Shown here: piece by piece, positions 896 to 40,615 of the stretch | Position numbering within the stretch: the first letter of the stretch is position 1 | Layout: each line of letters opens with the position of its first letter | Origin: Gemmatimonadota bacterium | Lineage (GTDB): Bacteria > Gemmatimonadota > Gemmatimonadetes > Gemmatimonadales > GWC2-71-9 | Assembly (NCBI GenBank): GCA_036679605.1 | Contig: JAZDCZ010000294.1 | Span: forward strand, 1-40,714 | Direction of reading: 5' to 3' | DNA: 40,714 nucleotides | Translations under genes and position numbers: made by a program | Notes under the pieces: model-generated | Databases searched by the model: none | What the model was told of the DNA's origin: nothing | What the model saw: the letters and a program-made list of their open reading frames with translations, nothing else

Positions 896-948
896 CGGGA
901 AGCGGGAAGCGGGAAGCGGGAAGCGGGAAAAGGGAAAAGGGGGGAGTA
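896..948 (+). repeat. Heptamer tandem array (CGGGAAG)x4 + GGGAAAA + GGGAGTA
   Basis: Directly visible tandem repeats. Confidence 0.95.
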
Positions 949-995
949 CCTACCCGGGCTTGCATCTTGGCCCCGCAGCGCCAAGATTTCCCCAC

Positions 996-1208
996 ATGCC
1001 CAAGCCCGCGTTTGACTACCGCAAGCTCTCAGTCGCCGAGCGGCTGCAGCTGGTCGAGGACATCTGGGATAGCATTGCCCAGGATACAGGTGCCGTCCCG
1101 GTTCCTTCTGAGGTCTTGGACGAAGCCGAGCGGCGACTTGCGGAACATCGTCGCGATCCCGATTCTGCCATCGCTTGGGAGGACGTAAAGGCTGAGTTGT
1201 CGTTCTGA
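996..1208 (+). CDS. Putative addiction module antitoxin (TIGR02574-like); C-terminus altered by a deletion
   Basis: LSVAERLQLVEDIWDSI...ERRLAEHR..P..AI.WEDVKAEL. Close paralog at 40131-40352. Confidence 0.85.
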   Translation: MPKPAFDYRKLSVAERLQLVEDIWDSIAQDTGAVPVPSEVLDEAERRLAEHRRDPDSAIAWEDVKAELSF

Positions 1209-1264
1209 CGGTTCACCATCATAGGCGGGCCCCGACGCGCTGGCACGCGGGGCGTGATGCCTAA
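1201..1264 (+). pseudogene. parE: 3' remnant of RelE/ParE toxin (VLTVHHHRRAPTRWHAGRDA*)
   Basis: Matches the reverse complement of 39840-39894. 253 nt are missing relative to the paralogous module. Confidence 0.85.
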
Positions 1265-1306
1265 CAACTGATCGTGCTGAGGGACGCTGTAATAGAGCGG
1301 CCGTGG

Positions 1307-1334
1307 GCTCCCTTTAGGGTCTTCCAGCGTGAAG
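1307..1334 (+). repeat. REP-like family C (CCCT-TT/TC-AGGGTC.TCCAGCG)
   Basis: Similar to 40581-40615 and to the reverse complement of 20259-20304. Confidence 0.65.
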
Positions 1335-1335
1335 T

Positions 1336-1380
1336 CCGCGACATGAGAGTCGCGTCTCGGCTGTTGCCGCTCAAGCGGCG
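1336..1380 (-). repeat. Double-hairpin element A, divergent copy
   Basis: Reverse complement reads CGCCGCTTGAGCGGC-AACAGCCGAG-ACGCGACTCTCATGTCGCGG; compare 8666-8734. Confidence 0.75.
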
Positions 1381-1443
1381 TTTTCTTCAATGTCCGGGGT
1401 GTTACGACAGTAGGGTTGGAATGCGTCGCGCTCTAGCGTTGTA

Positions 1444-1500
1444 CATTTCACTTTTCACATTTTATTTTTCCCGCTCCCCACTCCCCACTCCCCACTCCCT
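1444..1500 (-). repeat. Heptamer arms (GGGGAGT)n and (GTGAAA.)n following the stop of the response regulator
   Basis: + strand CATTTCACTTTTCACA...CTCCCCACTCCCCACTCCCCACTCCC. Confidence 0.9.
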
Positions 1501-1505
1501 TGTCC

Positions 1506-2462
1506 CTACGTAGTCTCCGACCTCGCCCGCCCGCCTATCTCGAAGGGCTTGATCCAATCTCCGTTGCCGGTGACTCTGGCTTTGCGCAGCGCGATGGTGG
1601 CGTGGAGCATGAGGTCGCGGGCTTCAACGGGGGTTTCGCGCACGTTGTTCACCGCATCATAACCGGCGCGCATTCGCAGCGGGTGTGCCTCGTCGGTTTG
1701 CTCCCGGATGAGTGTCTCCAGCCGTTTGGCCAGGCGCACGGCACCGGCGCTGTCAGTGCTGGGTGCCATGATCGCGAACTCGTTCTGCCCCAATCTGCCA
1801 ATGGCGTCGGACACGCGGCCCACGTCCTTGAGTGCTTTGCCCACGCGAATAATGGCTGCAAGCAGCGCCTTGTCGTCGAGCGTCGGAGTGGTTTCGTCTT
1901 CAGGTGGCGTTTGGGTAGGGGCGATAACTACGCAGGCCAGGGCCTGATGATCTCTGTAGGCCTGGGATCGGAGTTCACGAGCACGCTGTTCCAGGCCTCG
2001 CAGGTTGTAGAGTCCGGTAGACTCATCGACCAGACAACGCTCCAGGGCCCGGTCGGTCTCGAACTTGGCCCGGACGTACGCATCCAATCGCAGCAGCAGT
2101 TCCTGGGCATCGACGGGGAAGGATAGGAATTCCCAGGCACCCGCTCGCAACGAGGCCAATCGCTGATCGCGGGTGAGGCGTTCCGAACTGGTGACCAAGA
2201 TGGGGATGCTGGCGCTGAAGTGGGCGTTTTCGCGCAGTGTGCGGCAGAACTGAACCCCGTCACTGTTGGGCAGATTGGCACTCACGAAAATTAGATCCGG
2301 CGGTTGGGCTTGTGCTCGATCCAGCCCGGCCTTCGCCGTAAACGCCCGCATGACCGCATATCCGTTGGGTGCTAACACGCTCTCGAGCGATCGTGTCGAC
2401 CACTCTTGATCGTCTACAATTAGCACCACTGGTGGACGCGCATCAATACCGCGGTCAGACAT
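1506..2462 (-). CDS. Response regulator: receiver domain + degenerate GGDEF domain
   Basis: VLIVDD...PDLIFVSANLP (REC); D..TGLYN.RG and IGRLGQNEFAI (GGDEF position). RBS GGAGGG. Confidence 0.85.
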   Translation of the reverse strand: MSDRGIDARPPVVLIVDDQEWSTRSLESVLAPNGYAVMRAFTAKAGLDRAQAQPPDLIFVSANLPNSDGVQFCRTLRENAHFSASIPILVTSSERLTRDQRLASLRAGAWEFLSFPVDAQELLLRLDAYVRAKFETDRALERCLVDESTGLYNLRGLEQRARELRSQAYRDHQALACVVIAPTQTPPEDETTPTLDDKALLAAIIRVGKALKDVGRVSDAIGRLGQNEFAIMAPSTDSAGAVRLAKRLETLIREQTDEAHPLRMRAGYDAVNNVRETPVEARDLMLHATIALRKARVTGNGDWIKPFEIGGRARSETT

Positions 2463-2813
2463 TTCCCTCCTAATAAACGCGATTTTCGGAGTACGGCGTG
2501 GACAGCCGGCAGATTTCTAGCGCAGACTTTGTGCCGGGTCCCGAACTTAGGAAAAACATTGAGCCATAAGGGCTTAGGTATCTCAGAAGGACCGCCGGGA
2601 GCCATCAAATCGCTGCAACAGGCCTACAAGAGACCCTGTTGTGCCGCGATGTTGCAACGCGACAACGCGTTGATCCTGCCCGGTTGGTCTCTCATGGATA
2701 CCACAACTCGTTGTCACGTAACGCTCTAGATCATGCGACACGCGTCCGATATCACTCGGCCTCAATCTTGAACTTGCGTAGGCAGGTGAGGGCGGGTCCC
2801 TCAGAACGCTGGT

Positions 2814-3080
2814 TTGATAAGGTACTTAGAGAAAGCTTTACCTTTGCTCTGTCCTAGCTGTGAAATTGTCGTTACGAGGCTAAGTTCGGGTCCCGACCGC
2901 CGAGTTCGGTGGTCGCGCCTGGGAGATCCCTTGAGTGCGCTTCTCTGTGCGCGCTGTGGTGCGGTCTTGCCTTCTAACGACTCGGTGGATGCGATGTTGG
3001 CGAAGTTGTCGCAACTTTCACGCTTCGGCCTAGGGGCTGACGACAGACCGCTACTGAGCGCGTCGCGCCCGGGAGACTGA
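2814..3080 (+). CDS. Possible small zinc-ribbon protein (CPSC...CARC)
   Basis: Two CxxC motifs; stop ends 2 nt before the glmS ATG. TTG start is uncertain. Confidence 0.35.
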   Translation: MIRYLEKALPLLCPSCEIVVTRLSSGPDRRVRWSRLGDPLSALLCARCGAVLPSNDSVDAMLAKLSQLSRFGLGADDRPLLSASRPGD

Positions 3081-3082
3081 CT

Positions 3083-4909
3083 ATGTGCGGCATAATTGGA
3101 TACGTCGGAAAACGCGAGGCAGCACCGATCCTCCTGGAAGGATTGCGGCGTCTCGAATACCGCGGCTACGACTCGGCCGGAGTCGCGATCCAGAATGGGC
3201 AGGGTCTGAACGTGCGGAAGTTGGCGGGCCGAGTGCAGGGATTGTCCGATTCGCTGGCCGAGATGGCGCTTCAGGGGTCCGGGGGAATCGCACACACCCG
3301 CTGGGCAACCCACGGCGCTCCTACTCAGACGAACGCTCACCCGCACACCGACTGCTCCGGCAAGATCGTGCTGGTCCACAACGGCATCATCGAGAACGCC
3401 GATGCGTTGAGGAAGCAGCTCGAGCAAGACGGCCACGCGTTTGCGACCGAGACCGACACCGAGGTGCTTACCCACCTGATTGAGGCGTCGTCCGGTACCA
3501 CTCTAGAGGACAAGGTGATCGCCGCGCTCGAGTTCGTGGAGGGCGCATACGGCATGGCCGTCATGTGGGAGGACGAGCCGCGCAAAATAGTGGTGGCCCG
3601 CAAGGGATCGCCCGTGCTCTTAGGTATAGGTGACGGCGAGTACTTCGTGGCCTCAGATGCGACCGCCATTCTAGAGTACACTCGCTCGGTTGTCTACTTG
3701 GACGACGGCGATATCGCGATCCTGACGCCCGACGGTTACAGGGTGGTAGACCGAAAATCGCACGACCTCGATCGCTCTGTTGCGAACATCGATTGGGATA
3801 TGGGCGCCATAGAGTTGGGCGGCTATCCCCACTTCATGCTCAAGGAGATTTGCGAGCAGCCCGAGAGCGTGCGCAGCACGCTGCGCGGCAGGCTGGTGTT
3901 CGAGCAGGGCACCACTCGACTCAACGGTCTCAACCTGCCGCCCGAAGAGTGCGAGAAGATTCGCCGGATCGTGATTCTGGCTTGCGGCACGTCGTGGCAT
4001 GCCGCGCTGGTGGGGCGACACTGCATAGAGGAACTGACAGGCATTCCGGTGGATGTGGAGTACGCTTCCGAGTACCGCTACCGGCCGCAGCTCGAGATCT
4101 CCGGAACGCTGGCAATCGCCGTGTCGCAGTCGGGTGAGACGGCAGACACGCTCGAGGCCATGCGTGCCGCACGAGCGGTGGGCTGCAAGATCATCGGTAT
4201 CGTGAACGCAGTCGGTAGCAGCATCGCGCGGGACTCGGATGGCGGGATCTACCTGCATGCCGGTCCCGAAATCGGCGTGGCGTCCACCAAGGCGTTTACG
4301 TCGCAGATCGTGGCGCTGTTGCTGTTCGCGATCCACTTGGGTCGCCAGCGCGGGCTGTCCTTGGCGCAGGGCCAGGAACTGGTGTACGAATTGGCGCGGT
4401 TGCCGGAGCTGGTCGATCAGGTTCTGGAACTCGGGCCGGTCACGGAGGGCCTGGCGCGCGCGTACGCCGATGCCGGCAATTTCCTGTACTTGGGACGAGG
4501 AGTGAACTTTCCAGTGGCGCTGGAAGGTGCGCTCAAGTTGAAGGAGATCAGCTACATCCACGCCGAGGGGTACCCCGCGGCGGAGATGAAGCACGGCCCC
4601 ATTGCCTTGATCGACGAGAGCATGCCGGTCGTGTTCGTGGCTCCCAAGGACCACGTGTACCAGAAGGTGGTGGCCAATATGCAGGAGGTGAAGGCGCGGG
4701 GTGGTAGAATCATCGCTATCGCTACCGAGGGTAACGGTGATCTCCGCAATCTGGCCGATCACCAGCTGCGCGTGCCGAAGACATTGCCGCTGCTATCCCC
4801 GGTAATCACGTCGATACCGCTGCAACTCCTGGCATATCACATCGCAGTGCTGCGCGGGTGTGATGTGGACAAGCCGCGCAACCTCGCCAAGAGCGTCACG
4901 GTGGAGTAG
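3083..4909 (+). CDS. glmS: Glutamine--fructose-6-phosphate aminotransferase (isomerizing)
   Basis: MCGIIGY, LEYRGYDSAG, HTRWATHG, SQSGETADT, EGALKLKEISYIHAEGY, PRNLAKSVTVE. Confidence 0.99.
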   Translation: MCGIIGYVGKREAAPILLEGLRRLEYRGYDSAGVAIQNGQGLNVRKLAGRVQGLSDSLAEMALQGSGGIAHTRWATHGAPTQTNAHPHTDCSGKIVLVHNGIIENADALRKQLEQDGHAFATETDTEVLTHLIEASSGTTLEDKVIAALEFVEGAYGMAVMWEDEPRKIVVARKGSPVLLGIGDGEYFVASDATAILEYTRSVVYLDDGDIAILTPDGYRVVDRKSHDLDRSVANIDWDMGAIELGGYPHFMLKEICEQPESVRSTLRGRLVFEQGTTRLNGLNLPPEECEKIRRIVILACGTSWHAALVGRHCIEELTGIPVDVEYASEYRYRPQLEISGTLAIAVSQSGETADTLEAMRAARAVGCKIIGIVNAVGSSIARDSDGGIYLHAGPEIGVASTKAFTSQIVALLLFAIHLGRQRGLSLAQGQELVYELARLPELVDQVLELGPVTEGLARAYADAGNFLYLGRGVNFPVALEGALKLKEISYIHAEGYPAAEMKHGPIALIDESMPVVFVAPKDHVYQKVVANMQEVKARGGRIIAIATEGNGDLRNLADHQLRVPKTLPLLSPVITSIPLQLLAYHIAVLRGCDVDKPRNLAKSVTVE

Positions 4910-4942
4910 CCGGTATCTTTGACCCCTACTAGGTTGCAACTC

Positions 4943-5734
4943 ATGAAGGCTGTTCTCCTTTCCGCACTGGTCGCGATCGGCGTGTCGCTGAACGCGGGCC
5001 CACTCACTGCCCAGGGCCAGGACAACTGGGATCCTCGGCGAGTCTACATGACCCGCGAGGCGTTGGAGGGGCTGCTCAGCCGTCTCGAATCCGCGTCCAG
5101 GTCGACAGTGTACACCGCCTCGCTCAAGCGGCGTGGCAGCTTCGAGGCCGCGCTCATACGCACTCGTCTGGACCAGGGTGATTTTCAGGTGGGCGACCGG
5201 ATCCTCTTGACCGTGGAGGACGAGGAGGCGTTGTCCGACACGTTCACCGTGGCTCAGGGCCAGGTGTTGCGGCTGGAGACGGTGGGCGAAGTCCCGCTCC
5301 GGGGGGTCTTGCGGTCCGAGTTGGAGCCCCATATCACCAAGTCCTTGTCACAATATCTGAGAGATCCCGTGGTAACGGCGCGTTCGCTCATTCCCATCAC
5401 GATCCACGGTGGTGTAGGGCAGCCGGGGTTCTATACGGTGCCTTCCGAGGCGCTGCTGCCTGCTGCGATCATGTTGGCGGGCGGGTTCGCCCAAGACGCC
5501 GAGATCACCGAGGTGCGGGTGGAGCGAGGTGAAAACCGAATCTGGGAAGCCGAAGCGTTGCAACAGGCGATCGTGGAGGGTAGGACACTGGATCAGCTCA
5601 ATATGCGCGGCGGTGACCGGATCTTTGTGCCGCAGCAGAGCGGTGGGCTGGGTGGGGCGGAGAACGGGTTGCGGGCGATCAGCCTGCTGTTGGCGATTCC
5701 GCTCACGATAGTGGGGCTTGTGGCGATTTTTTAA
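4943..5734 (+). CDS. SLBB-domain polysaccharide export (Wza/OPX-like) protein
   Basis: Signal peptide; FQVGDRILL, GGVGQPGFY, AGG, GDRIFVP motifs; C-terminal hydrophobic helix. Alternative start at 4919. Confidence 0.8.
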   Translation: MKAVLLSALVAIGVSLNAGPLTAQGQDNWDPRRVYMTREALEGLLSRLESASRSTVYTASLKRRGSFEAALIRTRLDQGDFQVGDRILLTVEDEEALSDTFTVAQGQVLRLETVGEVPLRGVLRSELEPHITKSLSQYLRDPVVTARSLIPITIHGGVGQPGFYTVPSEALLPAAIMLAGGFAQDAEITEVRVERGENRIWEAEALQQAIVEGRTLDQLNMRGGDRIFVPQQSGGLGGAENGLRAISLLLAIPLTIVGLVAIF

Positions 5735-5865
5735 GCGGGAAGCGGGAAGCGGGAATAACGAACATCGAACAAGGAACGCCGAACATCGAAGTTGCTCCCT
5801 ACTCCCCACTCCCTCTCTGTTGCGTTTCACCTTTCACTGCGACTCATTCATGTCTCACATTTCAG
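5733..5865 (+). repeat. Composite junction: (AAGCGGG)x3, GAAYATC-type arm, then complementary TACTCCC and TTTCAC arms
   Basis: Visible repeats. 5742-5806 matches 21074-21138 at 60/65 nt. Confidence 0.9.
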
Positions 5866-5883: not shown

Positions 5884-6663
5884 TTGATCCAACAAATCAT
5901 CCCCATAGTCGAGTCTGCGGGCCGCCTGATCCAACAGGTTGCTTCGCGCGACTTCGACGTCGAACAAAAGGGCAACCAAGGGCCCGTGACCGAGGCGGAC
6001 CGCGGGGCGGACGAGCTGCTCAAATCAGCACTGCTGGCGATCGAGAGCTGCGGCTGGCTCTCGGAGGAGACCGCCGATGACCGTTCTCGGCTCGATGTCG
6101 AGCGGCTTTGGGTCGTGGACCCGCTGGACGGCACGAAGGAGTTCGTACAGCGGATCCCGGAATACACGGTGGCGGTAGCATTGGTGGAATCGGGTCGTCC
6201 CGTGCTGGGCGTCGTCCACAATCCCGCTACAGGTGACACGTATTGGGCGGTTAAGGGCGGCGGAGCGTTCAAGAACGGAGTAGCCGTGCACGTCTCCGAT
6301 GGAGCGGCGCTGCTCGCGTCCCGCTCAGAGATCAAGCGTGGCGAGTTCGAGCCTTTCACTCATGATTGGGAAGTGACCGCCCTAGGCAGCATCGAGTACA
6401 AGCTCGCGCTCATTGGATCCGGCCGCGCCAGTGTTACATTTTCACGCGGTCCCAAGTGGGAGTGGGACGTGTGCGCGGGCTCGCTCATAGTCGAGGAGGC
6501 CGGAGGTATCGTGACAGACCTGTTCGGGGCGCCGCTAGAGTTCAACCAGTCGTTCCCCAAGGTCAAAGGAGTGCTGGCCGGCGCGCCCGAGGCGTACGAG
6601 CGCGCTCGTGTCCAGCTCGCGACGATCGGGGCGTCCGATCGGATGGGGGAGTTTGGTATGTAG
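5884..6663 (+). CDS. cysQ: 3'(2'),5'-bisphosphate nucleotidase (inositol monophosphatase family)
   Basis: PVTEAD, LSEE, WVVDPLDGTKEF, WEWDVCAG..IVEEAGG; adjacent to sat/cysC. Confidence 0.85.
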   Translation: MIQQIIPIVESAGRLIQQVASRDFDVEQKGNQGPVTEADRGADELLKSALLAIESCGWLSEETADDRSRLDVERLWVVDPLDGTKEFVQRIPEYTVAVALVESGRPVLGVVHNPATGDTYWAVKGGGAFKNGVAVHVSDGAALLASRSEIKRGEFEPFTHDWEVTALGSIEYKLALIGSGRASVTFSRGPKWEWDVCAGSLIVEEAGGIVTDLFGAPLEFNQSFPKVKGVLAGAPEAYERARVQLATIGASDRMGEFGM

Positions 6664-6798
6664 GGGCCGGGAAGCGGGAAGTGTCAAAAGTGAAATGTGA
6701 AAAGTGAAATGTGAAAAACGGGAGTAGGGAGTAGGGAGTAGGGAGTAGGGAGTAGGGAGTAGCTTCGATGTTCCATCTCCCCACTCCCCACTCCCCAG
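6664..6798 (+). repeat. Composite junction: GGGAAGC, (GTGAAAT/A)x4, (GGGAGTA)x6 at 6720-6761, then CTTCGATGTTC and (CTCCCCA)x3
   Basis: Visible; purine arm followed by complementary pyrimidine arm. Confidence 0.95.
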
Positions 6799-6833
6799 TA
6801 AACCTGAACCAACCAACAACTAGGAGTTATTTC

Positions 6834-8561
6834 TTGCCTGACCATCTTATCACCCCGCACGGCGGGGCTCTAAATAATCTGATCGTAAGCGAAGATCGCG
6901 CTGCGGAACTCAAAGCCGCATCGCGCGACTGGCCGTCGTGGGACCTCACGCCGAGGCAACTGTGCGACTTGGAACTCTTGTTGAACGGGGGTTTTTCGCC
7001 GCTGCTGGGGTTCATGACACGCAAGGATTACGATGGTGTCTGCGAGTCGATGCGGCTGGCGGACGGCACGCTTTGGCCCATGCCGATCACGCTGGACGTT
7101 ACCGACGAGATGGCCGAGAAGCTGGAGTCGGGCGACACCTTGGCACTGCGGGACGCTGAGGGCGTGATGTTGGCGGCGATGAACGTGACTGACAAGTGGA
7201 CGCCCGACCGGGAGTCCGAGGCTCAGTCCGTATTTGCAACCACCGATCGCGAGCACCCTGCGGTAGCCTACCTGCTCGAAAAGAGCCACGCGGTTTACGT
7301 GGGCGGCACGCTGGAAGGACTGACCCTCCCGGCACACTACGACTACAGGGAATTCCGCGCTACGCCGGAGCAGGTGCGGGCAGAGTTTTCCCGCAGAGGT
7401 TGGCGCAGGATCGTGGCGTTCCAGACTCGGAACCCCATGCACCGGGCCCACCAAGAACTCACACTGCGTGCGGCCAAGGAGGTCGAGGCAAATCTCCTGA
7501 TTCATCCCGTTGTGGGGATGACCAAGCCGGGCGATGTCGACCACTACACCAGAGTGCGTTGCTACCAGGCGCTGCTACCGCGCTATCCCAAGAGCACTGC
7601 CATGCTGTCACTGTTGCCGTTGGCGATGAGAATGGGCGGGCCGCGCGAGGCTGTGTGGCACGCCATCATCCGCAAAAACTTTGGCTGCACTCATTTGATA
7701 GTGGGTCGCGATCACGCCGGTCCGGGCAGCGATTCGAGTGGGACTCCGTTCTACGGACCGTACGACGCCCAGGAGTTGCTGCAACAGCACGAGGAGGAGC
7801 TGGGCGTTGCGATGGTGCCGTTCAAGATGATGGTCTACGTGGATTCCCTGGACAAATACGTGCCGGTGGACGAAGTGCCGGAGGGCAAGCGGTCGCTCAG
7901 CATCTCGGGCACGGAGTTGCGGGCCCGTCTGGCTGAAGGCCGTTCGATCCCCGAGTGGTTCACGTTTCCCGATGTGGCGGCGGAGTTGCAGAAGAGCCAC
8001 CCTCCGAGGCCCAAGCAGGGCTTCACCGTTTTCTTTACCGGTCTGTCGGGATCGGGCAAGTCCACAATAGCGAACGTATTGATGGTGAAGTTTCTGGAGA
8101 TGGGCGGTCGGCCCGTGACGTTGCTGGACGGCGACATCGTTCGGACGAATCTCTCGTCTGAACTCGGATTTTCCAAGGAACATCGCGACATCAACATCCG
8201 CCGGATCGGCTTTGTGGCTTCGGAGAACACAAAGAACGGTGGCATTGCGATCTGTGCGCCCATCGCGCCATACGACGCGGTACGCCAAGAGGTGCGCGCC
8301 ATGATCGAGCCCGTTGGCGGGTTCGCTCTGGTGCATGTGGCCACACCGCTCGAGGTGTGCGAGCAGCGCGATCGCAAGGGGCTCTACGCAAAGGCCCGTG
8401 CCGGAATCATCAAGGAATTCACCGGGATCTCCGATCCCTACGAAGAGCCCGAGCGCGCCGAGGTCGTGATAGACACGACCAACGTGGAGCCCGAGGAGGC
8501 CGCGCAGCAGATCATACTATACCTTGAGCGGGAGGGATATGTGGGGGCGAGTGGGCTGTGA
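6834..8561 (+). CDS. sat: Bifunctional sulfate adenylyltransferase / adenylylsulfate kinase
   Basis: FQTRNPMHRAH, GRDHAG (ATP sulfurylase); FTGLSGSGKST, LLDGD, RDRKGLY, FTGISDPYE (APS kinase). RBS AGGAG before TTG 6834. Confidence 0.97.
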   Translation: MPDHLITPHGGALNNLIVSEDRAAELKAASRDWPSWDLTPRQLCDLELLLNGGFSPLLGFMTRKDYDGVCESMRLADGTLWPMPITLDVTDEMAEKLESGDTLALRDAEGVMLAAMNVTDKWTPDRESEAQSVFATTDREHPAVAYLLEKSHAVYVGGTLEGLTLPAHYDYREFRATPEQVRAEFSRRGWRRIVAFQTRNPMHRAHQELTLRAAKEVEANLLIHPVVGMTKPGDVDHYTRVRCYQALLPRYPKSTAMLSLLPLAMRMGGPREAVWHAIIRKNFGCTHLIVGRDHAGPGSDSSGTPFYGPYDAQELLQQHEEELGVAMVPFKMMVYVDSLDKYVPVDEVPEGKRSLSISGTELRARLAEGRSIPEWFTFPDVAAELQKSHPPRPKQGFTVFFTGLSGSGKSTIANVLMVKFLEMGGRPVTLLDGDIVRTNLSSELGFSKEHRDINIRRIGFVASENTKNGGIAICAPIAPYDAVRQEVRAMIEPVGGFALVHVATPLEVCEQRDRKGLYAKARAGIIKEFTGISDPYEEPERAEVVIDTTNVEPEEAAQQIILYLEREGYVGASGL

Positions 8562-8660
8562 AAGGTGAAATGTGAAACGTGAAAAAAAGGGAGTAGAGAG
8601 TAGAGAGTAGGGAGTAGGGAGTAGGGAGTGGCGCACTGGAAGCGGGACAAGGGAAAAGGA
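8558..8660 (+). repeat. Purine arm (GTGAAA.)x4 + (G[G/A]GAGTA)x6 + GGGA[C/A]AA
   Basis: Begins within the sat stop codon. Confidence 0.95.
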
Positions 8661-8665
8661 GCGGT

Positions 8666-8734
8666 TTGGCAGAATCAAAGAGATGGCACGTCGCTGTTAG
8701 CGACATCAGCCGAGCCGCGACTCTCACGTCGCGG
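8666..8734 (+). repeat. Double-hairpin element A (GTCGCT-GTT-AGCGAC ATCAGCCGAG CCGCGAC-TCTCAC-GTCGCGG)
   Basis: Near-identical copies at 14996-15065 and 37999-38067, divergent copy at 1336-1380, partial copy at 40447-40466. Confidence 0.9.
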
Positions 8735-8742
8735 ATTCCGCA

Positions 8743-10512: not shown

Positions 10513-10592
10513 AATATCGAATCATGAACAAGGAATTCTGAATGTCGAAGGGAGGCTGCTATTCCCCACTCCCTCCATTTCACATTTCACTG
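10512..10592 (+). repeat. Junction: GAATATC-type arm followed by CCCCACT / TTTCACA arms
   Basis: Lies between convergent genes and overlaps both stop codons. Confidence 0.85.
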
Positions 10593-11469: not shown

Positions 11470-11603
11470 TATTGAATCCCATGAAAACATATTGACTATT
11501 GTTGAATATAGCAGCGCGGGGAGGGGAGAGTAGGGGTCCGGCCTACGGCAAGCGTTGACCACGGTGACTAGCTAGCCGTCATATTTCATGGTATTATGAC
11601 GGC

Positions 11604-12767: not shown

Positions 12768-12778
12768 CCTTGCAGCTC

Positions 12779-25889: not shown

Positions 25890-25892
25890 GGG

Positions 25893-30845: not shown

Positions 30846-30951
30846 TTGGCGGAGGTGCAGAGTTCGGCGAGGACGTCACGGACGGGATTTGCGACTTCAG
30901 CTTCACCGCTGGCGTCAGCGCACCGCTCGGCCGTTCGGTTCGCAGCGCACG

Positions 30952-32073
30952 TCATGAGTCTTCCTCGGCTTCGGATCTTGGAGAAAGCCCAAAGCCTTGC
31001 CTGATGCGCTCCCATCGGGAGGCGAGCTCCTGAAAGTCCCGTCGGTTGTTCTGTCTCGCACGATCGACGTACTCGCCCCAAAGCATTCCAGCGAACGCCA
31101 ACACGGTGCCGAGAAACGCCGCGACCACGATGTTCCGAACTGGTCGGGGACTCGACTTACGTTGGGGGGGCACTGCACCATCGATAACCGTAATCAGCGG
31201 CGTGTCATTGACCTCTTGGATGCGAGCTTGCTCATACTCCCTACGAAGTGTGATCAGGACCTCCTGCTTGATGGTGACCTGCCGCTGCAGCCGATCATGT
31301 TGGAATCGGAGTTCTGGTGAGTTTTCGAACGCACGGTTCTGTTCTAGGAACCGTCTCAACGCTTCCTCGGCTTGGTGCAGCTCAGATTCGGTCTCAGTGA
31401 CCCGTTCCTCGGTGAAGCTTCGGCGGGCATGAGCACTTGATTGACGGGTTTCTAGATTGAAGTGGTTGAGGGACCCAACCAAGCTGTCAGCCACGTCGGC
31501 CGAGAGTGTAGGGTAGCGGGTTTCAACTTCCAGTGTTATCACATTGCTCTCATTGTCTATCCCGATCGAGATCGCTTTTTCGAGTGCCTTCCGCCCATGC
31601 TCAAGTCGCTGGGGGGTGTCGCGGCCCTCTCCCTCTATGGCGAGGATGTCGAGTAGCGTTGCGCTGTCCTGCTCTGTCTCTGTGCGTGGGTCCAGGAAGC
31701 GAGACACCAGAACATGGTCCATGATGCTGCGGCTGCGCAGGACCGTGGCGTAGAACTTCGGCGGGGCAGTACCTTGCTGAATATCAACCCCGAATTGCGA
31801 GGCCAGTCCGGCGAGTCCGCTTGGAACACTCTGATTTTGACTCTGTGTCTCGGGTAGGATCGTCGTTGTAGCCGTGTATCTCGCGGGACCCAGCACCGAT
31901 AGGATGCCAGTAACTCCTACTGCCACAACTGGCACGCCACCCACGAGCCGCCACCGTTTTAGAATGGCGCTGAGGATGTGCAGGACCGTGACCTGCTCCA
32001 ACGTACCTTCGGGCCCAGGGGCGCTGGTCTTGTTCGGTTCCTCAGGGAGAGCTGCCTCCGACGTGCTCCTCAT
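30952..32073 (-). CDS. Wzz/GumC chain-length determinant
   Basis: Two TMs flanking a coiled coil; RY.ATT, LAGLASQFG, VID.AVPP..KSSP. Confidence 0.85.
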   Translation of the reverse strand: MRSTSEAALPEEPNKTSAPGPEGTLEQVTVLHILSAILKRWRLVGGVPVVAVGVTGILSVLGPARYTATTTILPETQSQNQSVPSGLAGLASQFGVDIQQGTAPPKFYATVLRSRSIMDHVLVSRFLDPRTETEQDSATLLDILAIEGEGRDTPQRLEHGRKALEKAISIGIDNESNVITLEVETRYPTLSADVADSLVGSLNHFNLETRQSSAHARRSFTEERVTETESELHQAEEALRRFLEQNRAFENSPELRFQHDRLQRQVTIKQEVLITLRREYEQARIQEVNDTPLITVIDGAVPPQRKSSPRPVRNIVVAAFLGTVLAFAGMLWGEYVDRARQNNRRDFQELASRWERIRQGFGLSPRSEAEEDS

Positions 32074-32298
32074 GGCACCTGCTGTCCATGGGTCGCGCAC
32101 CCGACGCGGATGCTCAGATTCGTCGGGTTCTTGGCCAATGTCCGGGGCCTTGATCGCAGGATCCGCAGAGGTCTCGGCAATGCGCCGAGGCTGTTCGCCA
32201 TGCCCAGTTATCCGACGTCCTTTCTCACGCGATCTCTGGACATCATCCGGTCCGACTCGCTCGCCATGGTCCGCTCCTCACGCGACGGTGTGCGGTGA

Positions 32299-33303
32299 TC
32301 ACGCAGGTTTCTCCGCTGCGGTGCACGCGGAATCCGGCGTCGATGCTCTGGCGCATTCCACTTGGCTCGCTATCCACGGATAAGTAGCAACCATCCCCTC
32401 CCGAAGCGAGAATCTCGGCTTCCAGCCAGCGGAATAAATTCTGTCGTTACTGAAGTTCCTTGACCTCACACCAACTGGTCCGTTCACGCACTGCACCTTT
32501 ATATTCTTGCCGGCAACTTCGCAGACAGTCGCAACTAGCTCCTTCACCGATACGTATTCGGGCGAGCCGATGTTTGTCGGCCCTTCAAGATCGGAGTCCA
32601 TGAGCCTACGGATGCCGTCTGCCATGTCGTCAACGTACGTGTACGAGCGGATGGCAGTGCCGTCACCCCAGACCTCGATAGTGCCGCCATCCTCTACCTC
32701 GGCGATCTTACGGCAAATGGCTGCGGGTGCTTTTTCCCTCCCACCGGTCCACGTACCTTCTGGACCATAACAATTCTGAAAGCGCGCGATCCGGATGTTC
32801 ATCTCGTATCGGCGTCCATATGCCATGGCCATTCGCTCCGCGTACAGCTTTTCCCAGCCGTACTCATTGTCTGGTTGTGCCGGGTACGCTTGCTCTTCCG
32901 TTAGCTCCGGTTCACCTGCAGCCATGTCCCGGTAGATGCAGACTGAAGAAGAAAAGAAGTACCGGCTTACTCCTGTCTCAGCCGAAGCGTCGATCATGTT
33001 AAGGTTAATCAATGCGTTATTGCGCATGATCTCGCATTCGGCCGAGTGGATAAATCCCATACCTCCCATGTCGGCCGCTAGCTGGTACACTTCGTCGAAC
33101 TTGTGACAACCGTCCGGGGCTAACGCTCGCTCACATCCTCCGGCATCACGTAGATCTAGCGACATGAACTCGTCCGCAGCCGATGAGGAGAATTCCGGGT
33201 GCTTGATGTCGACACCACGAACCCAGTAACCCTCTTGCTTCAGCCGTCTTACGAGGTGGCTCGCTATGAAACCACCGGCGCCACATACTAATGCACGCTT
33301 CAC
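32299..33303 (-). CDS. NAD-dependent epimerase, GDP-mannose 3,5-epimerase-like
   Basis: [49 protein letters not shown]. Confidence 0.85.
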
Positions 33304-34331
33304 AAGGTGCTCCTCCTTATCAAGTGCTTATTGCTGTTTTCAGCAGTTTGTACGGTGTCAAGATCTGCGTCAACCATCATATGCACGAGTTCTTTAAAAG
33401 TGATTTTCGGTTCCCACCCAAGTTTCTCATGAGCCTTTGAAGCGTCTCCAATGAGGAGGTCAACTTCGGTGGGTCTGTAATATCTCGGATCAATTTCGAC
33501 GTATTGCGCCCAATCTAACTCGGCATATGAGAACGCCTCATCCAAAAACTCCCGTACCGAATGTGTCTCACCGGTAGCCAGTACATAATCATCAGGGTTT
33601 TCTTGTTGCAGCATGAGCCACATGCCTTCCACATAGTCTCCTGCGTAACCCCAGTCACGTTTCGCATCCAGATTGCCCAAGTATAGTTTATCTTGCGTAC
33701 CAACAAGAATATTGGCGATTGCCCGAGTAATCTTACGTGTCACAAAAGTCTCACCGCGTCTTGGCGACTCATGGTTGAAGAGTATGCCGTTGCATGCGAA
33801 CATGCCATACGCCTCGCGGTAGTTCACCGTCGAATAATAGGCGAAGGCCTTCGCGCAGGCATAGGGACTCCGAGGATTGAAGGGTGTAGTCTCACGCTGG
33901 GGCGTTTCTACCACCTTGCCGTACAGTTCGCTGCTTGAGGCTTGATAGAACTTCGTGTCGACCTCCGTCTCACGGATGGCCTCGAGTAGCCGAACGCAGC
34001 CGGTACCCGTAATATCGGCGGTGTACTCCGGTATGTCGAAGCTGGTCCTCACGTGGCTTTGAGCTGCAAGATTGTAGACTTCGTCGGGCTTTATGGCCTT
34101 GACGATTTGATTTAGCGAGCTTGCGTCACCGAGATCTCCGTACACTAAGTGCAGATGTACATCCGGATTGTGCGGATCATCATAGAGGTGGTCGATTCTG
34201 GCAGTATTGAAGGTGCTTGAGCGCCGGATGATACCAAATACTTCATAGCCCTTGGCCAGAAGGAACTCGGCTAGGTAGGATCCGTCCTGTCCCGTGATTC
34301 CAGTGATTAGAGCTTTCAGCGGTTTGCCCAT
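33300..34331 (-). CDS. gmd: GDP-mannose 4,6-dehydratase
   Basis: [67 protein letters not shown]. Confidence 0.98.
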
Positions 34332-34344
34332 GTCTGTTGCGATC

Positions 34345-36888
34345 CTACCTTGTCGCCACCACAATCACCGTGGTTATACCAACCAGGATCGAAGCGATAT
34401 TTCCAAACAGGGTGACAAAATCCACTCTATCTGACGGATCCTTGGCCGGCACAAGCACCGTACTTCCCGGCCCAGGCTTAGGCGAGGAACGGAAAAACAG
34501 GAACTTGCTCTTGGTTTTCGCCGAGCCGTTAGCGTAACGCACGCTGGCCTTCCCCTTGTCTGCCAGCCGCGCAAAGCCGCCCGCATTGGCGATGTAATAA
34601 TCTAGGCCGGCGCCCTTGCTGAACAGCACGCTCGTTGGCGTGTTTACCGCTCCGATGACTCGTACGGTCGGGTTGTACTCCGGGATGAAGAGTGAGTCGC
34701 CGGGCTGTAGCATAATGTCGTGTCCGTTGGCGGGGTTCTGCAACACCTTTTCCAGATCCACATTCACCTGACCCGCCGAGTCCAAAGACCTGAAGAAGCG
34801 GGCCCCTCCCACATAGGCCGTGCTCAGCAATCCACCGGCTCGCCGCACCAAATCGCTTACCCGCTCGTCTTTTCGGGTCAGAGCGTACATGCCGGGAAAC
34901 AGCACCTCGCCAAAAATCTCAGCCGTCCGCTGTAACTCGAACTGCGGCTGGCGGAATATCGTGATCTGATCGTACGGCTCGAGCGATACCTCCGGTGCGC
35001 CGCTCGGCTGCGCAGGGAGCCCCGGCAGTCGGGGATAGCTGCTCGATCCCGGCTCAAAGATATAGGTGGAGTCCAGCGGCACCCGCCGCTGGATCGCCAG
35101 TGTGCCGCCCGTCCTGTCCGCCGGCAGCCGCGCGATCTCGGCCGAGTCGAGCCAAGCACCGTCGCGAAGGCCCCGTGCCATTAGCACCAAATCCCTTAAC
35201 GTCATCCCGCCCCGAAACGGGAACCTGCCAGGTTGATTGACCATGCCTGCGATCGATACCGTACGCGGCTGCCTCAGTTCGGCCCGCCCGTAGATCGTCA
35301 CAATGTCGTAGTCCTGTAGCAGCACGTCGTCGGGGTAGGGCAGAGAGCTGTCCGCCGGTAGCCCTGCTACTACGAGGTAGCGCGTCGAGTCGGCCGCGTT
35401 AAGTCGCTCGATGTGGGCTCGCCCGGAGTAGACCGCCGACTGAAATCCACCCGCCAACTCGATCAGGTCACTCAGGCGTAGGCCCTGCCGCCAGCCGTAC
35501 GTGCCCGGCTGGTAGACGTTTCCGATCAACTCTACAGTCGAGCGTATCGCTTCGGGCACCTCGAATACGGTTACGAAGTCGCCACCCTCTATGGGGAAGA
35601 GTGGTGCGTGCCCGGCCTCTATCTGGTCGATCGGAACATCGACCACTATTCGGTCGGCTCCGCCGGGCTGACGTACGTTGGGCGGTACGATGCGGGAGAT
35701 TGAAATGCGGCGGAGCGCCGCCGTCACGTCGAAGCCGCCTGCCGCCTGCACCAGATCGTCGAGCGTCTGACCTTGCTTGAGATCGTAGATCGCCGGTCGC
35801 AAGACCGCCCCGCTGATGCTCGCCCTGATGCCGTGCACCGGCACGAACACCACATCCCCCTGCTCCAGGATCACATCGTTGCGTGTATCGCCTGCCAGCA
35901 GATAGTCGTACAGGTCGAACACCGCGACCGTATCGCCTCGGCGTCGCACCATGATATTGCGGAAGTTGGCCCGCTCGGTTGGGCCGCCCGCCGCATACAG
36001 CGCATTCAGCACGGTGGCAACGGAAGCCAGTTGATACGCGGCCGGCTGGGCCACTTCGCCGATCACGAATATCTGATTGGCGTGGAGTCTCGCGACCGTG
36101 ATGTCAAAGCGCGTCGTTCCGGCCTGGATGCCGGAGTACGACTGGCCGAGCCTCCGCCTCAGCAGAATCCGCAACTGCTCCATCGTCAGGTTTGCCACTG
36201 CGATCTGGCCGACCTGTGGGATCACGATGAAGCCCCCGCGGGTCACTTCCAGCTCTCGCGCCAACTCTACGTCGCCCGTAATGACCAACACCATCACGTC
36301 GCCGGGTCCGACGCGGTAGTTGGGCGGCACCGGACCGGACAGCACCGGCTGGAAGCGGGTTGTCCGACCGCCGAACACGTCGAGCCCGAACACTTGGAGC
36401 GGCTCGACTTGCGCCAGCGAATCGACCTCTGCACTGTCGGCCAAGATCTTGAGCGAATCGAGGCCGGTTTGCAGCGGCACCTCCTCCAATCCCTGTGCTT
36501 GCATTTGCCGGATGCCCAGCATCCCGAGCGCCTGCGCGGCCTGCTCGCTGACGCCCCCCAAAACGGCAAGCGAATCGGCCGTCATGAACTGATCGAGCAG
36601 GGTGGGGGAGTATCCTGCGGCTCGGAGTTGTGACCGAATCTCGGCTGGGGTGAGGCCCGACTCGCGTATGCGCTGCCGCACCAGCTCGGGGTTGCGTCTC
36701 AGTTGCTCGATCTGTTGCGGAGTTAGCTGTTGGGCGTGCGCCGTGACGACCGCTCCAGCGCACAGCAGCACTGCCGTCGCATGGACGCGTATGCCTCGAA
36801 TGACACGCTGTCTGATGCATGAAAAAAACAGCGATAGCTGTGGCGGCAAACGCGGCCTCTGGATGTCAAAGTTAACTTTGTAGCGCAA
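34345..36888 (-). CDS. Large multi-SLBB polysaccharide export protein (KpsD/Wza-like); start uncertain
   Basis: YRVGPGD, G.IVIPQVG, repeated GEV..P / L..AGG / GD...VP units, C-terminal helix. Confidence 0.88.
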
Positions 36889-36974
36889 AGTACTTTAACA
36901 GCCCCCGAAAGGGCCGTCAAGCGGCGCGAAAGATGCGGGCTAAATTCCTGGCAGTCAAGGGGTTGTGAAACAGG

Positions 36975-37098
36975 TAGTAGGGAGTGGGGAGTGGGGAGTC
37001 CTTTAGGACCCTTTTCTCGGCCGAGCCCGGCCTTGTTAGGCCGGGACCATCGCAAACAGACTCACCGGCGCACCCGAGCGCGCGTTTTCTAACGCGCG
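36975..37098 (+). repeat. GGGAGT arm + element B (36998-37054) + family-D hairpin with CGAG foot (37075-37098)
   Basis: Visible; matches the other copies. Confidence 0.85.
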
Positions 37099-37303: not shown

Positions 37304-37528
37304 ATGCCAATCGCCAAGAAGACCTCGAAGAATCAGATCACCCTTCCATGTTCCGTCGTGGATCGATTCCCAGGTGTCAACTATTTCGAAGTGCGGGAGG
37401 AGGATGGCCGGATTGTACTGTGTCCGGTCCGCCCCGAGCGGGCCGACGAGGTTCGCAGGAAGCTCGCTGCGCTTGGAATCGAGCAGGGAAATGTTGAGGC
37501 TGCCCTGCGTTGGGCCCGGGGGAAGTGA
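37304..37528 (+). CDS. AbrB/MazE/SpoVT family antitoxin
   Basis: AKKTSKNQITLP...V....GV.YFEV..EDGRIVL.P; RBS GGAGAG. Confidence 0.85.
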   Translation: MPIAKKTSKNQITLPCSVVDRFPGVNYFEVREEDGRIVLCPVRPERADEVRRKLAALGIEQGNVEAALRWARGK

Positions 37529-37944
37529 TCCGGCGAGTGGTGCTGGACACCAACGTGGTCGTCTCGGCCCTCCTTTTCGAACGTGGCCGGCTGTCCTGGC
37601 TTCGGCCGGCGTCGATCGCGGGGGACTTCCGTCCGCTGGTCTCCCACGCCACCGCCGCGGAATTTCTCCGGGTCCTGTCTTATCCCAAGTTCCACCTCTC
37701 CGATCGGGAGATCGAGGCCGTTCTCGGTGACTTTCTTCCCTTCGCGGAGCCCGTTGAGGTGAAAGAGACGACCGCCGTGTTGCCCCGGCTTCCGGACCCG
37801 GACGACCGCATCTTCCTCCAGCTCGCCGAGGCCGGAACAGCCGAGTTTCTGGTCACGGGAGATCGGGATCTCCTCGCAGTCCCCCCGCCTGGTGACTATC
37901 GGATCATCTCGCCCACCGAGTTTGAGGCCATCCTCAGGGGCTGA
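37525..37944 (+). CDS. PIN-family toxin (TIGR00305-like)
   Basis: RVVLDTNVVVSALLF, RVLSYPKF, DPDD..FL.LA..G.A..LVTGD.DLL; GTGA overlap. Confidence 0.9.
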   Translation: MIRRVVLDTNVVVSALLFERGRLSWLRPASIAGDFRPLVSHATAAEFLRVLSYPKFHLSDREIEAVLGDFLPFAEPVEVKETTAVLPRLPDPDDRIFLQLAEAGTAEFLVTGDRDLLAVPPPGDYRIISPTEFEAILRG

Positions 37945-37966
37945 CGGAGAGACAATCCGGTCGTTC

Positions 37967-38106
37967 AGGGATACGGGAAAACGGGAAAAGGAGGCCGGTT
38001 GGCAGAATCAAAGAGATATCACGTCGCTGTTAGCGACATCAGCCGAGCAGCGACTCTCATGTCGCTGATCATTTATGGTGAAACGTGAGATGTGAAGAGT
38101 GAAACG
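37967..38106 (+). repeat. GGGAAAA arm + element A (37999-38067) + (GTGAAA.)n arm
   Basis: This element A copy has a compensatory C>A / G>T change in stem 2. Confidence 0.88.
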
Positions 38107-38292
38107 TTGCGCGCATTGCGAGCGAAGGACGAAGGCGATATCCGTTTCAAGTCTGTAGCACACGCTCGAGTTTCGCCAACGCTGCGTCTCGCTTCCGGGT
38201 ATCCGTCTTTCGGATATTGAGGAGCTTCCACTGGATGTCTTCTGCAATGATGCCCAGTGCGGCACCGATTCCTCGCAAGAACTCACTACGAA

Positions 38293-38424
38293 TCAGACAC
38301 CGCATTCCTTGAGGTAATTCCCAAGGGATATGATCAGGCGCGTGACGACTTGCTGGTGCGAAGGATGGGGGACGGGTGTCACCAACAACTCCCCGTGCAC
38401 GGTCTCGTAACGCTTCCGGTCTTC
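38293..38424 (-). pseudogene. Internal fragment of a third Uma2 gene
   Basis: Translates EDRKRYETVHGELLVTPVPHPSHQQVVTRLIISLGNYLKECGV*; DNA matches 646-730. Confidence 0.85.
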
Positions 38425-38508
38425 GGACCGGCGCCGTTTCCGTCCGTCCCCGTCCGGCGCGCAGGACTAACACTTGCAAAAGAACTGATTTTATACGTTA
38501 TTATGTAA

Positions 38509-39360
38509 GTGCACGTCTTCAAGTACCAGTTTCCCGAGGTGTCCATACCGCCCCCGCGACTGGCTCAGCAGATAGCCATATGGCAAGGAGATGGCCGGTA
38601 TACGTTTACGCGGGAGGACATCGCACACGCGCTCGGCCGTTGGACGACGAGCACCCGCGACACCCTCCGCCGCCTCCAGCAGGCACACCGGGTTGTGCGC
38701 CCCCGGACGGGATTCTACGCAATTGTCCCGCCGGAATACCGCCGTATCGGCACCCCGCCCCCAACGTGGTACATTGACCAGCTCATGCAGTACCTCGAGC
38801 AGCCGTACTACGTCGGTCTCCTGTCGGCGGCAGCCACGTACGGCGCGGCTCACCATCAGCCACAGGAACTGCAGGTCGTCACCGATCGACCGACCCGGGT
38901 CCTCCAGACCGGCCGCGCCAGAGTGCGCTTCATCATGAACCGCCACGTCGTCGAGGTGCCGATCCAGATGGTCAATACCCCCACCGGCACCATGCGCGTG
39001 GCTACCCCTGCGGCCACCGCATTCGATCTCGTGACCCACCTCCGCCACGTTGGTGGAATAGGCAACGTGACCTCAGTTCTACTTACTCTGGCACCGCAGA
39101 TCGATGTCGGCGAACTCGAGCGCCTTGCCAAACGGCACACTCAGGCCGCTGTGCGGCGTCTTGGCTATCTCATGGAGGCCGCTGGAGCAACGCGCTGCGC
39201 CGATTTGCTCGCCTCAAACCGAGTTCCGGGAGTCGGCCGTGCTGTGGTGCCACTGCACCCGGGGGCGGGGAGTGATGACGACGCCCGCGGAAGCGCGCTC
39301 ATCGATGCTCGCTGGGGTATCCGGGTCAACACGGATCCGACGCCCGAAGAGGACGCCTGA
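38509..39360 (+). CDS. abiEi: Type IV TA antitoxin AbiEi family
   Basis: GRY.FT, P..GFY.IVPPEY...G.PP..WYID.LM......YYVGLLSAA..YGAAH.QPQE.QV.T, TP..TA.DL. Confidence 0.88.
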   Translation: MHVFKYQFPEVSIPPPRLAQQIAIWQGDGRYTFTREDIAHALGRWTTSTRDTLRRLQQAHRVVRPRTGFYAIVPPEYRRIGTPPPTWYIDQLMQYLEQPYYVGLLSAAATYGAAHHQPQELQVVTDRPTRVLQTGRARVRFIMNRHVVEVPIQMVNTPTGTMRVATPAATAFDLVTHLRHVGGIGNVTSVLLTLAPQIDVGELERLAKRHTQAAVRRLGYLMEAAGATRCADLLASNRVPGVGRAVVPLHPGAGSDDDARGSALIDARWGIRVNTDPTPEEDA

Positions 39361-39684
39361 TACCGAGCGCCTTCATCACGGCCTGGCGCTCGCAGGTTCC
39401 GTGGGTGCGGGATGAGCAAGCTCGGCGTCGCGCTCGATCGTGGGGTTGCCCCGCCCGCGACGATCGTCGACGCCTTCCAGTTCTACATGGAGCGCGAGGG
39501 GCACCGCGTGTCGCGAGCGGAGTTCGAGAAGAACGTAGCCGAGAAGATGCGCGACAAAGAGTTCGTGGAGGATACGGCTCCGTTCTTGACAACCGATGTC
39601 AGGTTGGATCTCGTGCAGGCACACGCCAAGGTGGCTGCTGCACTCCTTGCGCTCCTCCCGGGTGAACCATGGCGTGGGGACTAG
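39357..39684 (+). pseudogene. abiEii: AbiEii/AbiGii nucleotidyltransferase toxin with large internal deletion
   Basis: N-terminus (L)IPSAFITAWRSQVPWVRDEQ joined out of frame near 39420 to C-terminus ...VALD...YMEREGHRVSRAEFEKN...LLPGEPWRG; NTase core absent. Confidence 0.8.
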
Positions 39685-39765
39685 GGGACTAGGGGAGTAG
39701 GGGAGTGGGGGAGAAGTCCTTTAGGACCCTGTGCTAGGCCGAGCCCGGTCTTCAGACCGGGACCA
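39676..39765 (+). repeat. GGGGACTA/GGGGAGT arm + element B
   Basis: Begins within the AbiEii stop region. Confidence 0.85.
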
Positions 39766-39836
39766 CACGTGAGGGGCCCCCCAGGCGCGCTTGAGGTCTT
39801 TGGGAAGACGAACCCTGGCCTCGCGGTGATCGTCGC

Positions 39837-40134
39837 CTAACGCCCCGGGTGCCAGGGCGTCGGAGCCCGCTTATGATGGTGAACCGTCAGAACGATGATC
39901 TCATCGTTCTCGTACGCGTAGAGAATCGAATAAGGGAATCGGCGCAGAACAACGTGCCTCACATCGGGCCGCAACGGCGGGAACGCATCGGGCATCCGCA
40001 CCACCACCGCCAGTGCTCCATCCACAGCTCGCGCAAACTCGAGCCCAAGGCCCGGTGATCGCGTCTCATACCAATCTTGTGCCTCGAGAAGCTCTGCGCG
40101 CGCTCGTGACCGGAAAGCGCAAACGCGGCGTCAT
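39837..40134 (-). pseudogene. parE: RelE/ParE toxin with a +1 frameshift near codon 7-8
   Basis: ATG 40134 overlaps the antitoxin TGA; total 298 nt. MTPRLRF-[extra base]-RSRARAELLEAQDWYE...LRRFPYSILY. Confidence 0.8.
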
Positions 40135-40352
40135 CCGCCGCGCTTGTACAACTCAGCCTTTACGTCCTCCCAAGGAACGGCAGAATCGGCATCGCTCCGA
40201 TGCTCCGCCAGTCGCCGCTCGGCTTCGTCCAAGACCTCGGGAGGAACCGGGACGGCACCAGTCTCCTGGGCAATGCTATCCCAGATGTCCTCAACCAGCT
40301 GGAGCCGCTCGGCGACGGAGAGCTTACGGTAGTCAAACGCGGGCTTGGGCAT
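40131..40352 (-). CDS. Putative addiction module antitoxin (TIGR02574-like)
   Basis: Full-length paralog of 996-1208. Confidence 0.88.
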   Translation of the reverse strand: MPKPAFDYRKLSVAERLQLVEDIWDSIAQETGAVPVPPEVLDEAERRLAEHRSDADSAVPWEDVKAELYKRGG

Positions 40353-40405
40353 GTGGGAAATCTTGGCGCTGCCGGGCCAGGATGCAAGCCCGGATGACGC
40401 CTGAG

Positions 40406-40615
40406 ATGAGAAAAGGGAAAAGGGAAGACGGCTGAGCCGTAGCACTCACGTCGCTGTTAGCCGAGCTGTTTCGGCCGATCTAATCACCGACTCCTTCCGC
40501 AATCCCCAGCCGCGTGACGACTTGCTGGTGCGAAGGACGCGGGGACTGTCACCTCGGCTGTACGGATGGGGCAAGAGTGCGCGGCCTCCCTTCAGGGTCG
40601 TCCAGCGCGAAGCGC
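40406..40615. other. Mosaic junction of GGGAAAA arm, element A fragment, Uma2 fragments in both orientations and family-C repeat
   Basis: Piecewise matches to 8687-8715, 241-264, 646-694, 794-822 and 20259-20292. Confidence 0.75.

Follow-up and report, generated by a model that had tools for sequence, protein, structure and literature searches.

A polysaccharide locus of a Gemmatimonadota bacterium raises the question of whether the short tandem repeats at its gene borders delimit mobile gene cassettes or belong to an element of another kind. The locus occupies a contig of 40,714 nucleotides (nt), which was analysed at its full length and is called the window below (contig C217 of the source genome, G000, whose assembly comprises 6.7 Mb in 434 contigs). 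The backbone of the window consists of a GGDEF regulator gene, glmS, an export gene, cysQ, sat, a permease gene and wecB; a glycan block of 12 open reading frames (ORFs), gmd included, is located at 21706-36888, and two clusters of toxin-antitoxin (TA)-type genes encode PIN, Phd, AbrB, MNT/HepT, MNT/HEPN, Fic, Uma2, AbiEi and TIGR02574 proteins. Junctions between these genes carry purine-rich (R) heptamer runs, termed opening arms, and pyrimidine-rich (Y) runs, termed closing arms. An initial annotation had read the locus as a row of units of the form Y-arm, gene, R-arm. The real unit is the inverse, opening arm to closing arm, and the supposed cassettes are the stretches of DNA lying between one element and the next. 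We give about an even chance to the reading that each pair of arms forms the ends of a small inverted-repeat element, that the copies in the window are gene-less, and that TA modules were moved by passive homology.

The arms themselves are real and polar. The dimer pattern GTGARANGTGAAA was matched 17 times and the dimer pattern GGGAGTRGGGAGT 21 times in the window, with none expected from 100 shuffles, and period-7 arrays detected by Tandem Repeats Finder (TRF) span 896 to 40426, which bears out the repeat vocabulary and positions first reported. Across the genome, a GTGAAA dimer was matched 69 times (3 times for the reversed control), and in a de novo scan the two outer purine classes held 142 period-7 arrays, compared with 40 after shuffling. 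At least five heptamer words are in use, and those at the window junctions were sorted into word classes A, B, C, D and E. Motif matches are focal: 150 were located on 28 of the 434 contigs, 90 of them on four contigs, and 33 in the window. When the skewed period-7 arrays were counted by hand genome-wide, an R array was followed within 300 nt by a Y array in 11 cases and a Y array by an R array in none. The same 11 to 0 was counted by hand at 21 loci fetched from G001, the fragmented same-genus genome that served as the sole close relative for comparison, these loci having been picked for matching the window, a second hotspot or arms. The order of purine arm first and pyrimidine arm second was therefore upheld, and the nested mirror around cysQ is also present (closing arms 5795-5837, opening arms 6668-6762). 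The proposed unit did not hold up as a rule: only 9 of the 18 arm-bounded gene blocks in the window read Y..R (one with a weak R), 7 read R..R and 2 read R..Y. Every arm to the right of 36900 is R on the + strand.

The gene content of arm pairs outside the window indicates what the element may be. G000 has two four-helix-bundle genes of the PF05635 family, and both are located inside opening/closing arm pairs. The first lies between recX and alaS, preceded by an opening GGGAGT run and followed by a closing run, the same word as in the window, and the second lies inside a different pair on contig C210 with GTGAATA arms. Matches to PF05635 numbered 140 and came from 34 of 41 genomes; 31 of these loci were examined, namely the best match of each of 29 relatives and both of G000. 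Perfect reverse-complement matches of at least 12 nt between the two flanks were observed at 22 of the 31 loci, compared with 15 of 930 mismatched flank pairs (21 of 30 without locus L078 of G015, which is marked unpublished), and direct matches at 3 of 31; these and the following figures are counts, not a test, and kin are not independent. Tandem arrays were found in 21 upstream and 27 downstream flanks, as against 5 of 29 each at a distance of 1 kb, and 31 of the 48 flank arrays had a period of 7. The opening arm was purine-rich at 18 of 21 loci, a rule with exceptions.

The GTGAATA-armed element of G000 (L001:1420-1945, on C210) is located inside an apparent DNA methylase gene, where by eye another frame reads through, and an open frame of 1340 amino acids with a weak Y1_Tnp match lies nearby on the same contig. 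The recX-alaS junction of G001 (L042:10330-10523 and L040:1-80) contains an opening arm and another tandem palindromic repeat before the contig breaks.

Filled and empty forms of one junction were found between a ZIP transporter gene and rarA. The junction in G000 is an empty opening/closing pair, while in G001 a pair with the same word encloses a TIGR02436 gene, adjacency there being taken across a contig break in the opening arm; in G011 the helix-bundle gene is present on one contig with GGGATTC arms. Loss of the gene in G000 would be the simplest reading of these sequences. A profile search found no PF05635 gene in the window. The runs of one 7-base word that open and close the element elsewhere occur in the window as matched hairpins at three of seven junctions and as unmatched words at four. 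The window copies are thus regarded as the empty form, because a PF05635 gene with the same word occurs elsewhere in the genome and such a gene occurs at the orthologue of an empty junction.

Arms were also observed in frame inside genes. A second hotspot of G000 (contig C319, 167-187 kb) carries in-frame arms in ftsK, which holds a full pair, and in alaS, an SDR gene, the CCA enzyme gene and rarA; lying inside these genes, such arms cannot be cassette borders. An alignment of 11 RarA proteins showed that one arm site is a same-length replacement and the other a variable loop. Both sites carry the GTGAAA word in G000 and G001 and the GGGATTC word in G011, and the word is that of the element just upstream, which points to local templated rewriting as the putative mechanism. 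In-frame arms were also seen in G011 (L205:326-1594, C67), where wecB directly adjoins hflX, the two being more than 20 kb apart in G000: the junction carries GGGGATT arms, which recur in frame in the C-terminus of wecB, and a GAGTGCG pair is found at the other end of hflX. Among the wecB flanks of four relatives, clear arms were found in one.

On these observations, the full element would be a PF05635/TIGR02436 gene set between two runs of a 7-base word, one opening and one closing, which can pair as a stem in RNA. The words turn over fast and have been locally rewritten, also in frame where a protein loop permits it. Templated local copying, by conversion or template switching between neighbouring arms, may both write and homogenise them. 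The helix-bundle protein, a relative of Avd, the accessory factor of diversity-generating retroelements, could help this copying in trans; a preprint on these retroelements (10.1101/2023.10.23.563531) describes Avd as an RNA-binding barrel of five subunits that resembles S23 proteins. Short arrays and copied junction blocks of 47-68 nt would then provide passive homology by which ordinary recombination captures and moves TA modules, and no dedicated recombinase would be needed. A stronger version, in which the helix-bundle protein recognises arm RNA or DNA and directs templated writing of both kinds of run close to its element, in frame where this is tolerated, with the arms as exchange sites of an integrase-free system for capturing and reordering TA modules in a surface-polysaccharide operon, seems unlikely to us.

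Folding of the junctions bears on a different explanation, namely that the arms act only via RNA or DNA structure (RNase III-type stem-loops, stability, termination or G-quadruplexes), that TA genes pile up through the plasticity of the glycan locus, and that breakpoints fall at arms via their position at gene ends. Junction hairpins exceeded shuffles at three of seven window junctions, at 6665-6800 (GGGAGTA x6 with CTCCCCA x3, z -2.66; only a GTGAAA word is found there in G001), 13631-13750 (z -3.54) and 19075-19277 (a long D-word hairpin with closing A/B words, z -3.30), all three being empty junctions. Outside the window, three of four correctly placed folds had z below -2.6, a fold of L008:3448-3560 that missed the arms having been dropped from the counts. 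The many arms of the C319 hotspot lie among housekeeping genes that keep the same order in G001. Only 2 of the 29 PIN genes and 3 of the 14 MNT nucleotidyltransferase genes of the genome are located within 300 nt of an arm, all of them in the window. G-quadruplex formation cannot cover all arms, since a G3 tract is lacking from the GTGAAA and GAAYATC words. An action through structure alone leaves unexplained the filled and empty junction forms, the copied junction blocks and the rewritten in-frame arms, as well as the loss or gain of HepT, which ends at the arm inside the MNT/HepT module; we consider it possible but doubtful.

The same explanation draws support from published repeats. Rehm et al. 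(2015, PMC4692102) describe heptamer repeats in Xanthomonas (GGGAATC) and Nostoc (GGGGA(C/T)T) that form runs of ~4 units of variable length between relatives, with the G-rich strand just after stop codons and the C-rich strand before starts, as read on the coding strand, and with convergent inverted pairs (70 and 75 cases), and repeat-bearing junctions were more stable than controls. The placement after stops and before starts and the convergent pairs recur in the window, and its GGGAGT word is close to the Nostoc word. The repeats of that source use one word, genome-wide, at stable junctions and with no tie to mobile genes, whereas at least five words are used here, focally, swapped at orthologous sites, with in-frame copies, helix-bundle payloads and TA turnover. 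Arm polarity is thus already published for Xanthomonas and Nostoc, while for the helix-bundle link the literature searched, supplements lying outside the search, yielded no publication that connects PF05635 genes with heptamer arms. Two further systems are comparable in part. MacGregor (2015, PMC4679880) describes TAACTGA runs in Beggiatoaceae, Cyanobacteria and Bacteroidetes, just upstream of start codons and in some cases inside ORFs, as direct repeats for translational control with one inverted case, and the words 'helix bundle' are absent from that text; L059, one of the helix-bundle loci examined here, has the same word in its closing arm. The abstract of Warrier et al. (2016, PMC4990558) reports an intervening sequence in the Coxiella 23S rRNA that carries an S23p ORF and is excised by RNase III. 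The protein family, PF05635, is common to both, but the G000 copies are located in or among protein genes, and heptamer arms are not mentioned in that abstract.

To relate the arms to gene movement, the window was compared with G001 only, because a full-length close orthologue of sat was found there alone among 40 relatives. Window and G001 are 76-89% identical. The blocks GGDEF-glmS-export gene and cysQ-sat-permease keep their order and direction, while the arm words at the same junctions differ. Directly after the permease junction, G001 carries the AbrB/PIN module and then the MNT/HEPN module; in the window their order is reversed, and they lie past wecB, about 9 kb further along (MNT/HEPN at 19277-20131, 88% identical; AbrB/PIN at 20332-21023, 89% identical; like the main arms, junctions, single genes and single modules of the window, on the + strand, composite blocks being given without strand). 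Homology runs over 19277-20125 and 20332-21009, from closing-arm end to opening-arm start, although in G001 the AbrB leader is preceded by about 110 additional nt. The TIGR02574 antitoxin at 997-1208 is absent at this junction in G001. HepT is missing from G001 too, and its border is the arm at 18597. Homology ends about 25 nt or less from the arm edges at gained, lost and reordered TA modules. Junction blocks have also been copied within the window, with 87-91% identity over 47-68 nt, for example 5739-5806 and 21071-21138 (91%) and 14864-14917 and 8562-8615 (89%).

The cassette model, in which housekeeping genes and TA modules alike would be inserted, inverted or deleted by a dedicated integrase-free system, gains from the nine Y..R blocks and the clean cysQ mirror and from the two TA modules that moved with borders at arms. 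The arms are not universal sites, however: they occur in frame inside essential genes, they stand as R..gene..Y around helix-bundle genes, and most TA genes are arm-free. Against the treatment of housekeeping genes as cassettes stand glmS, the export gene, cysQ, sat and the permease gene, which keep their order in G001, and no inversion was seen relative to that genome. Arms on both sides were found at none of the 8 closest PIN-module homologs in other lineages (TRF; best 8 of 80 loci) and at none of 4 paralogous HEPN loci. Contigs from four of six runs gave no usable arm-to-arm circle or inversion, and the joints met between junction pieces were better read as other loci or organisms and were set aside. 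We therefore regard a dedicated system as very unlikely. The cassette idea holds only for this locus and its TA modules, which were gained, lost and moved at the junctions, and there the process is probably passive; the arms are real elements marking a TA hotspot, not a universal cassette system. A genome scan had been proposed to test polarity and enrichment near accessory genes; polarity and focal clustering were seen, and the PIN and MNT genes near arms were all in the window.

Several observations weigh against reading the arms as element ends that shuffle TA modules by homology. Four of the seven window junctions fold no better than shuffles (z -0.90 to 0.09) and bring together unmatched words, among them the empty junctions at 10510-10590 (opening D word, closing A/B words, z 0.09) and 18105-18154 (z -0.87); such joining of unmatched words is what would be expected of recombined junctions. 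In the breakpoint comparison, confined to one genome, the reordering of TA modules ends at arms, but in G001 wecB and an antitoxin remnant have internal deletions that lie away from arms. In part, alignments would stop at arms in any case, as arms lie at gene ends and intergenic DNA diverges there. The window has no four-helix-bundle gene, which leaves that protein a putative role in trans. Across genomes, array counts and PF05635 showed no clean link. Around rarA, genomes with PF05635 gave 5 (G011), 4 (G004), 7 (G016), 1 (G017) and 0 (G018) period-7 arrays, and genomes without it gave 0 (G006) and 2 (G005); around wecB, 0 were found in G006 and 2 in G007. G005, with no PF05635 match, has one heptamer pair, and G018, with three matches, has none in the 20 kb tested.

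No recombinase was tied to the arms. The statement that no integrase is present holds for the window but not for the genome, where TIGR02249 integron integrases exceeded the cut-off on C73 and C407 only, none being on C217. The two integrons (L018 on C73, L019 on C407) contain attC-like repeats and share a hairpin with 26-nt arms near the integrase end, and no heptamer arms were found at these loci. At the window junctions, heptamer runs stand in place of attC-like sites, with one or two decayed core-site-like words seen by eye; Rfam gave no match in the window and no rRNA is located there. Like an integron array, the window lines up accessory and TA modules, with repeats at their junctions and variation between relatives; unlike one, it has neither integrase nor Rfam match, and its modules lie in both orientations with their own leaders.

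The search for a recombinase or HUH nuclease did yield a lead for a second, non-heptamer palindrome family with which arms are interleaved. A Y1_Tnp gene (G000:C154:36988-37452) lies amid copies of a palindrome also seen at window positions 1335, 8662, 14992 and 37999, and the C154 copies form tandem units of a 70-nt palindrome and a closing heptamer arm (L009:8500-9620, equal to G000:C154:36500-37620). A long decamer tandem array follows these units. An IS200/RAYT-like HUH nuclease acting on palindromes like repetitive extragenic palindromes (REPs) could thus drive the shuffling, with the heptamer arms carried along, and C154 probably continues the window locus. The encoded protein was identified by NCBIfam as IS200/IS605 TnpA (61 bits, cut-off 55), no REP-associated model being listed, and it is heptamer arms, not the palindrome, that flank the two reordered modules, so that we hold this explanation to be quite improbable. 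REPs and bacterial interspersed mosaic elements (BIMEs), miniature inverted-repeat transposable elements (MITEs) and in-frame palindromic elements are treated in PMC3184786 and linked there to the plasticity of a TA-bearing junction in E. coli. Like these, the elements described here are small hairpins that occur both between genes and as in-frame parts of proteins, but their arms are built of tandem heptamers, the word differs from locus to locus and between lineages, and no terminal sequence is conserved.

The remaining junctions and genes of the window can be followed from left to right. An opening arm at 893-947 (GGGAAGC x4, GGGAAAA x2, GGGAGTA) and a closing arm at 1442-1507 (TTTCAC and CTCCCCA runs) enclose the TIGR02574 antitoxin gene, and the response regulator/GGDEF, glmS and polysaccharide export genes (1506-5734) follow. 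An empty junction at 5730-5837, with opening C/D and then closing A/B words, precedes the cysQ-like gene (5884-6663), and the sat/APS kinase gene (6768-8561) is followed by opening arms only (8556-8660; another word, GCAGATT x5, at the G001 counterpart) and by a REP-like palindrome of the second repeat family, which has 22 genome matches and is interleaved with arms (8662-8736). Downstream of the SLC13-type permease gene (8743-10512), an accessory block at 10580-13630 contains a PIN_3 toxin gene with a partner ORF, an AAA/DUF4143 ATPase gene and a Phd/PIN pair, with a closing arm at 12780-12844. wecB (13785-14870) is followed by opening arms with two non-heptamer palindromic repeats (14862-15065) and by a second accessory block (15109-18014; nucleotidyltransferase, Uma2 and Fic genes) with opening arms only at its borders and with arms at 15590-15668 and 16366-16376. 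The MNT/HepT pair (18190-19078) has an opening arm at 18597-18646 between its two genes; G001 has MNT and the arm. The segments 18146-18198 and 19247-19299, each comprising closing arm, leader and gene start of two different nucleotidyltransferase modules, are 81% identical, and this common 5' end suggests gene replacement behind it. Junctions at 20132-20330 (opening C/D words, closing A word) and 21018-21223 (opening B/E/C/D words, closing A words) lead to the glycan block, the latter holding the final arm before it; no arm was found at any internal junction among its 12 ORFs.

To the right of this block, an opening arm at 36971-37002 starts a TA array (37304-40432) with AbrB/PIN, Uma2 fragments, AbiEi and a second TIGR02574 antitoxin and with opening arms only, at 37966, 38078, 39676 and 40403. 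The corresponding export gene-hflX junction in G001 is about 320 nt long with an antitoxin remnant, while in G000 it is a TA array of several kb, which on synteny probably continues on C154 up to the closing arm before hflX, the join crossing a repeat found at five contig ends. The first 107 nt of the window (1-107) were found again at five contig ends; together with the window end (40611-40714) they show a subterminal inverted repeat of 13 nt and interrupt a palindrome found whole in G001, and we take them to resemble an IS1111-type element targeting a REP-like site. Uma2 genes and fragments recur at 241-834, 15795-16340, 38279-38426 and 40507-40577, and the TIGR02574 antitoxin occurs at 997-1208 and 40131-40352. 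A third small repeat of two short hairpins follows GGGAGT arms three times (14917-14965, 36999-37050, 39716-39766) and is also present in G001. At 13038, an otherwise identical contig of run X1 has 21 extra bases inside the Phd antitoxin gene, and hflX on C154 is 21 residues shorter than in G001; both differences are either strain variation or assembly loss.

To our knowledge, heptamer repeats are over-represented in many bacteria with no known cause, and PF05635 is a large family with no known function. The filled and empty junction, the in-frame rewriting and the TA moves at arms tie these two puzzles together and make both testable. For annotators, odd low-complexity loops in FtsK, AlaS and RarA can be the footprints of DNA repeats.

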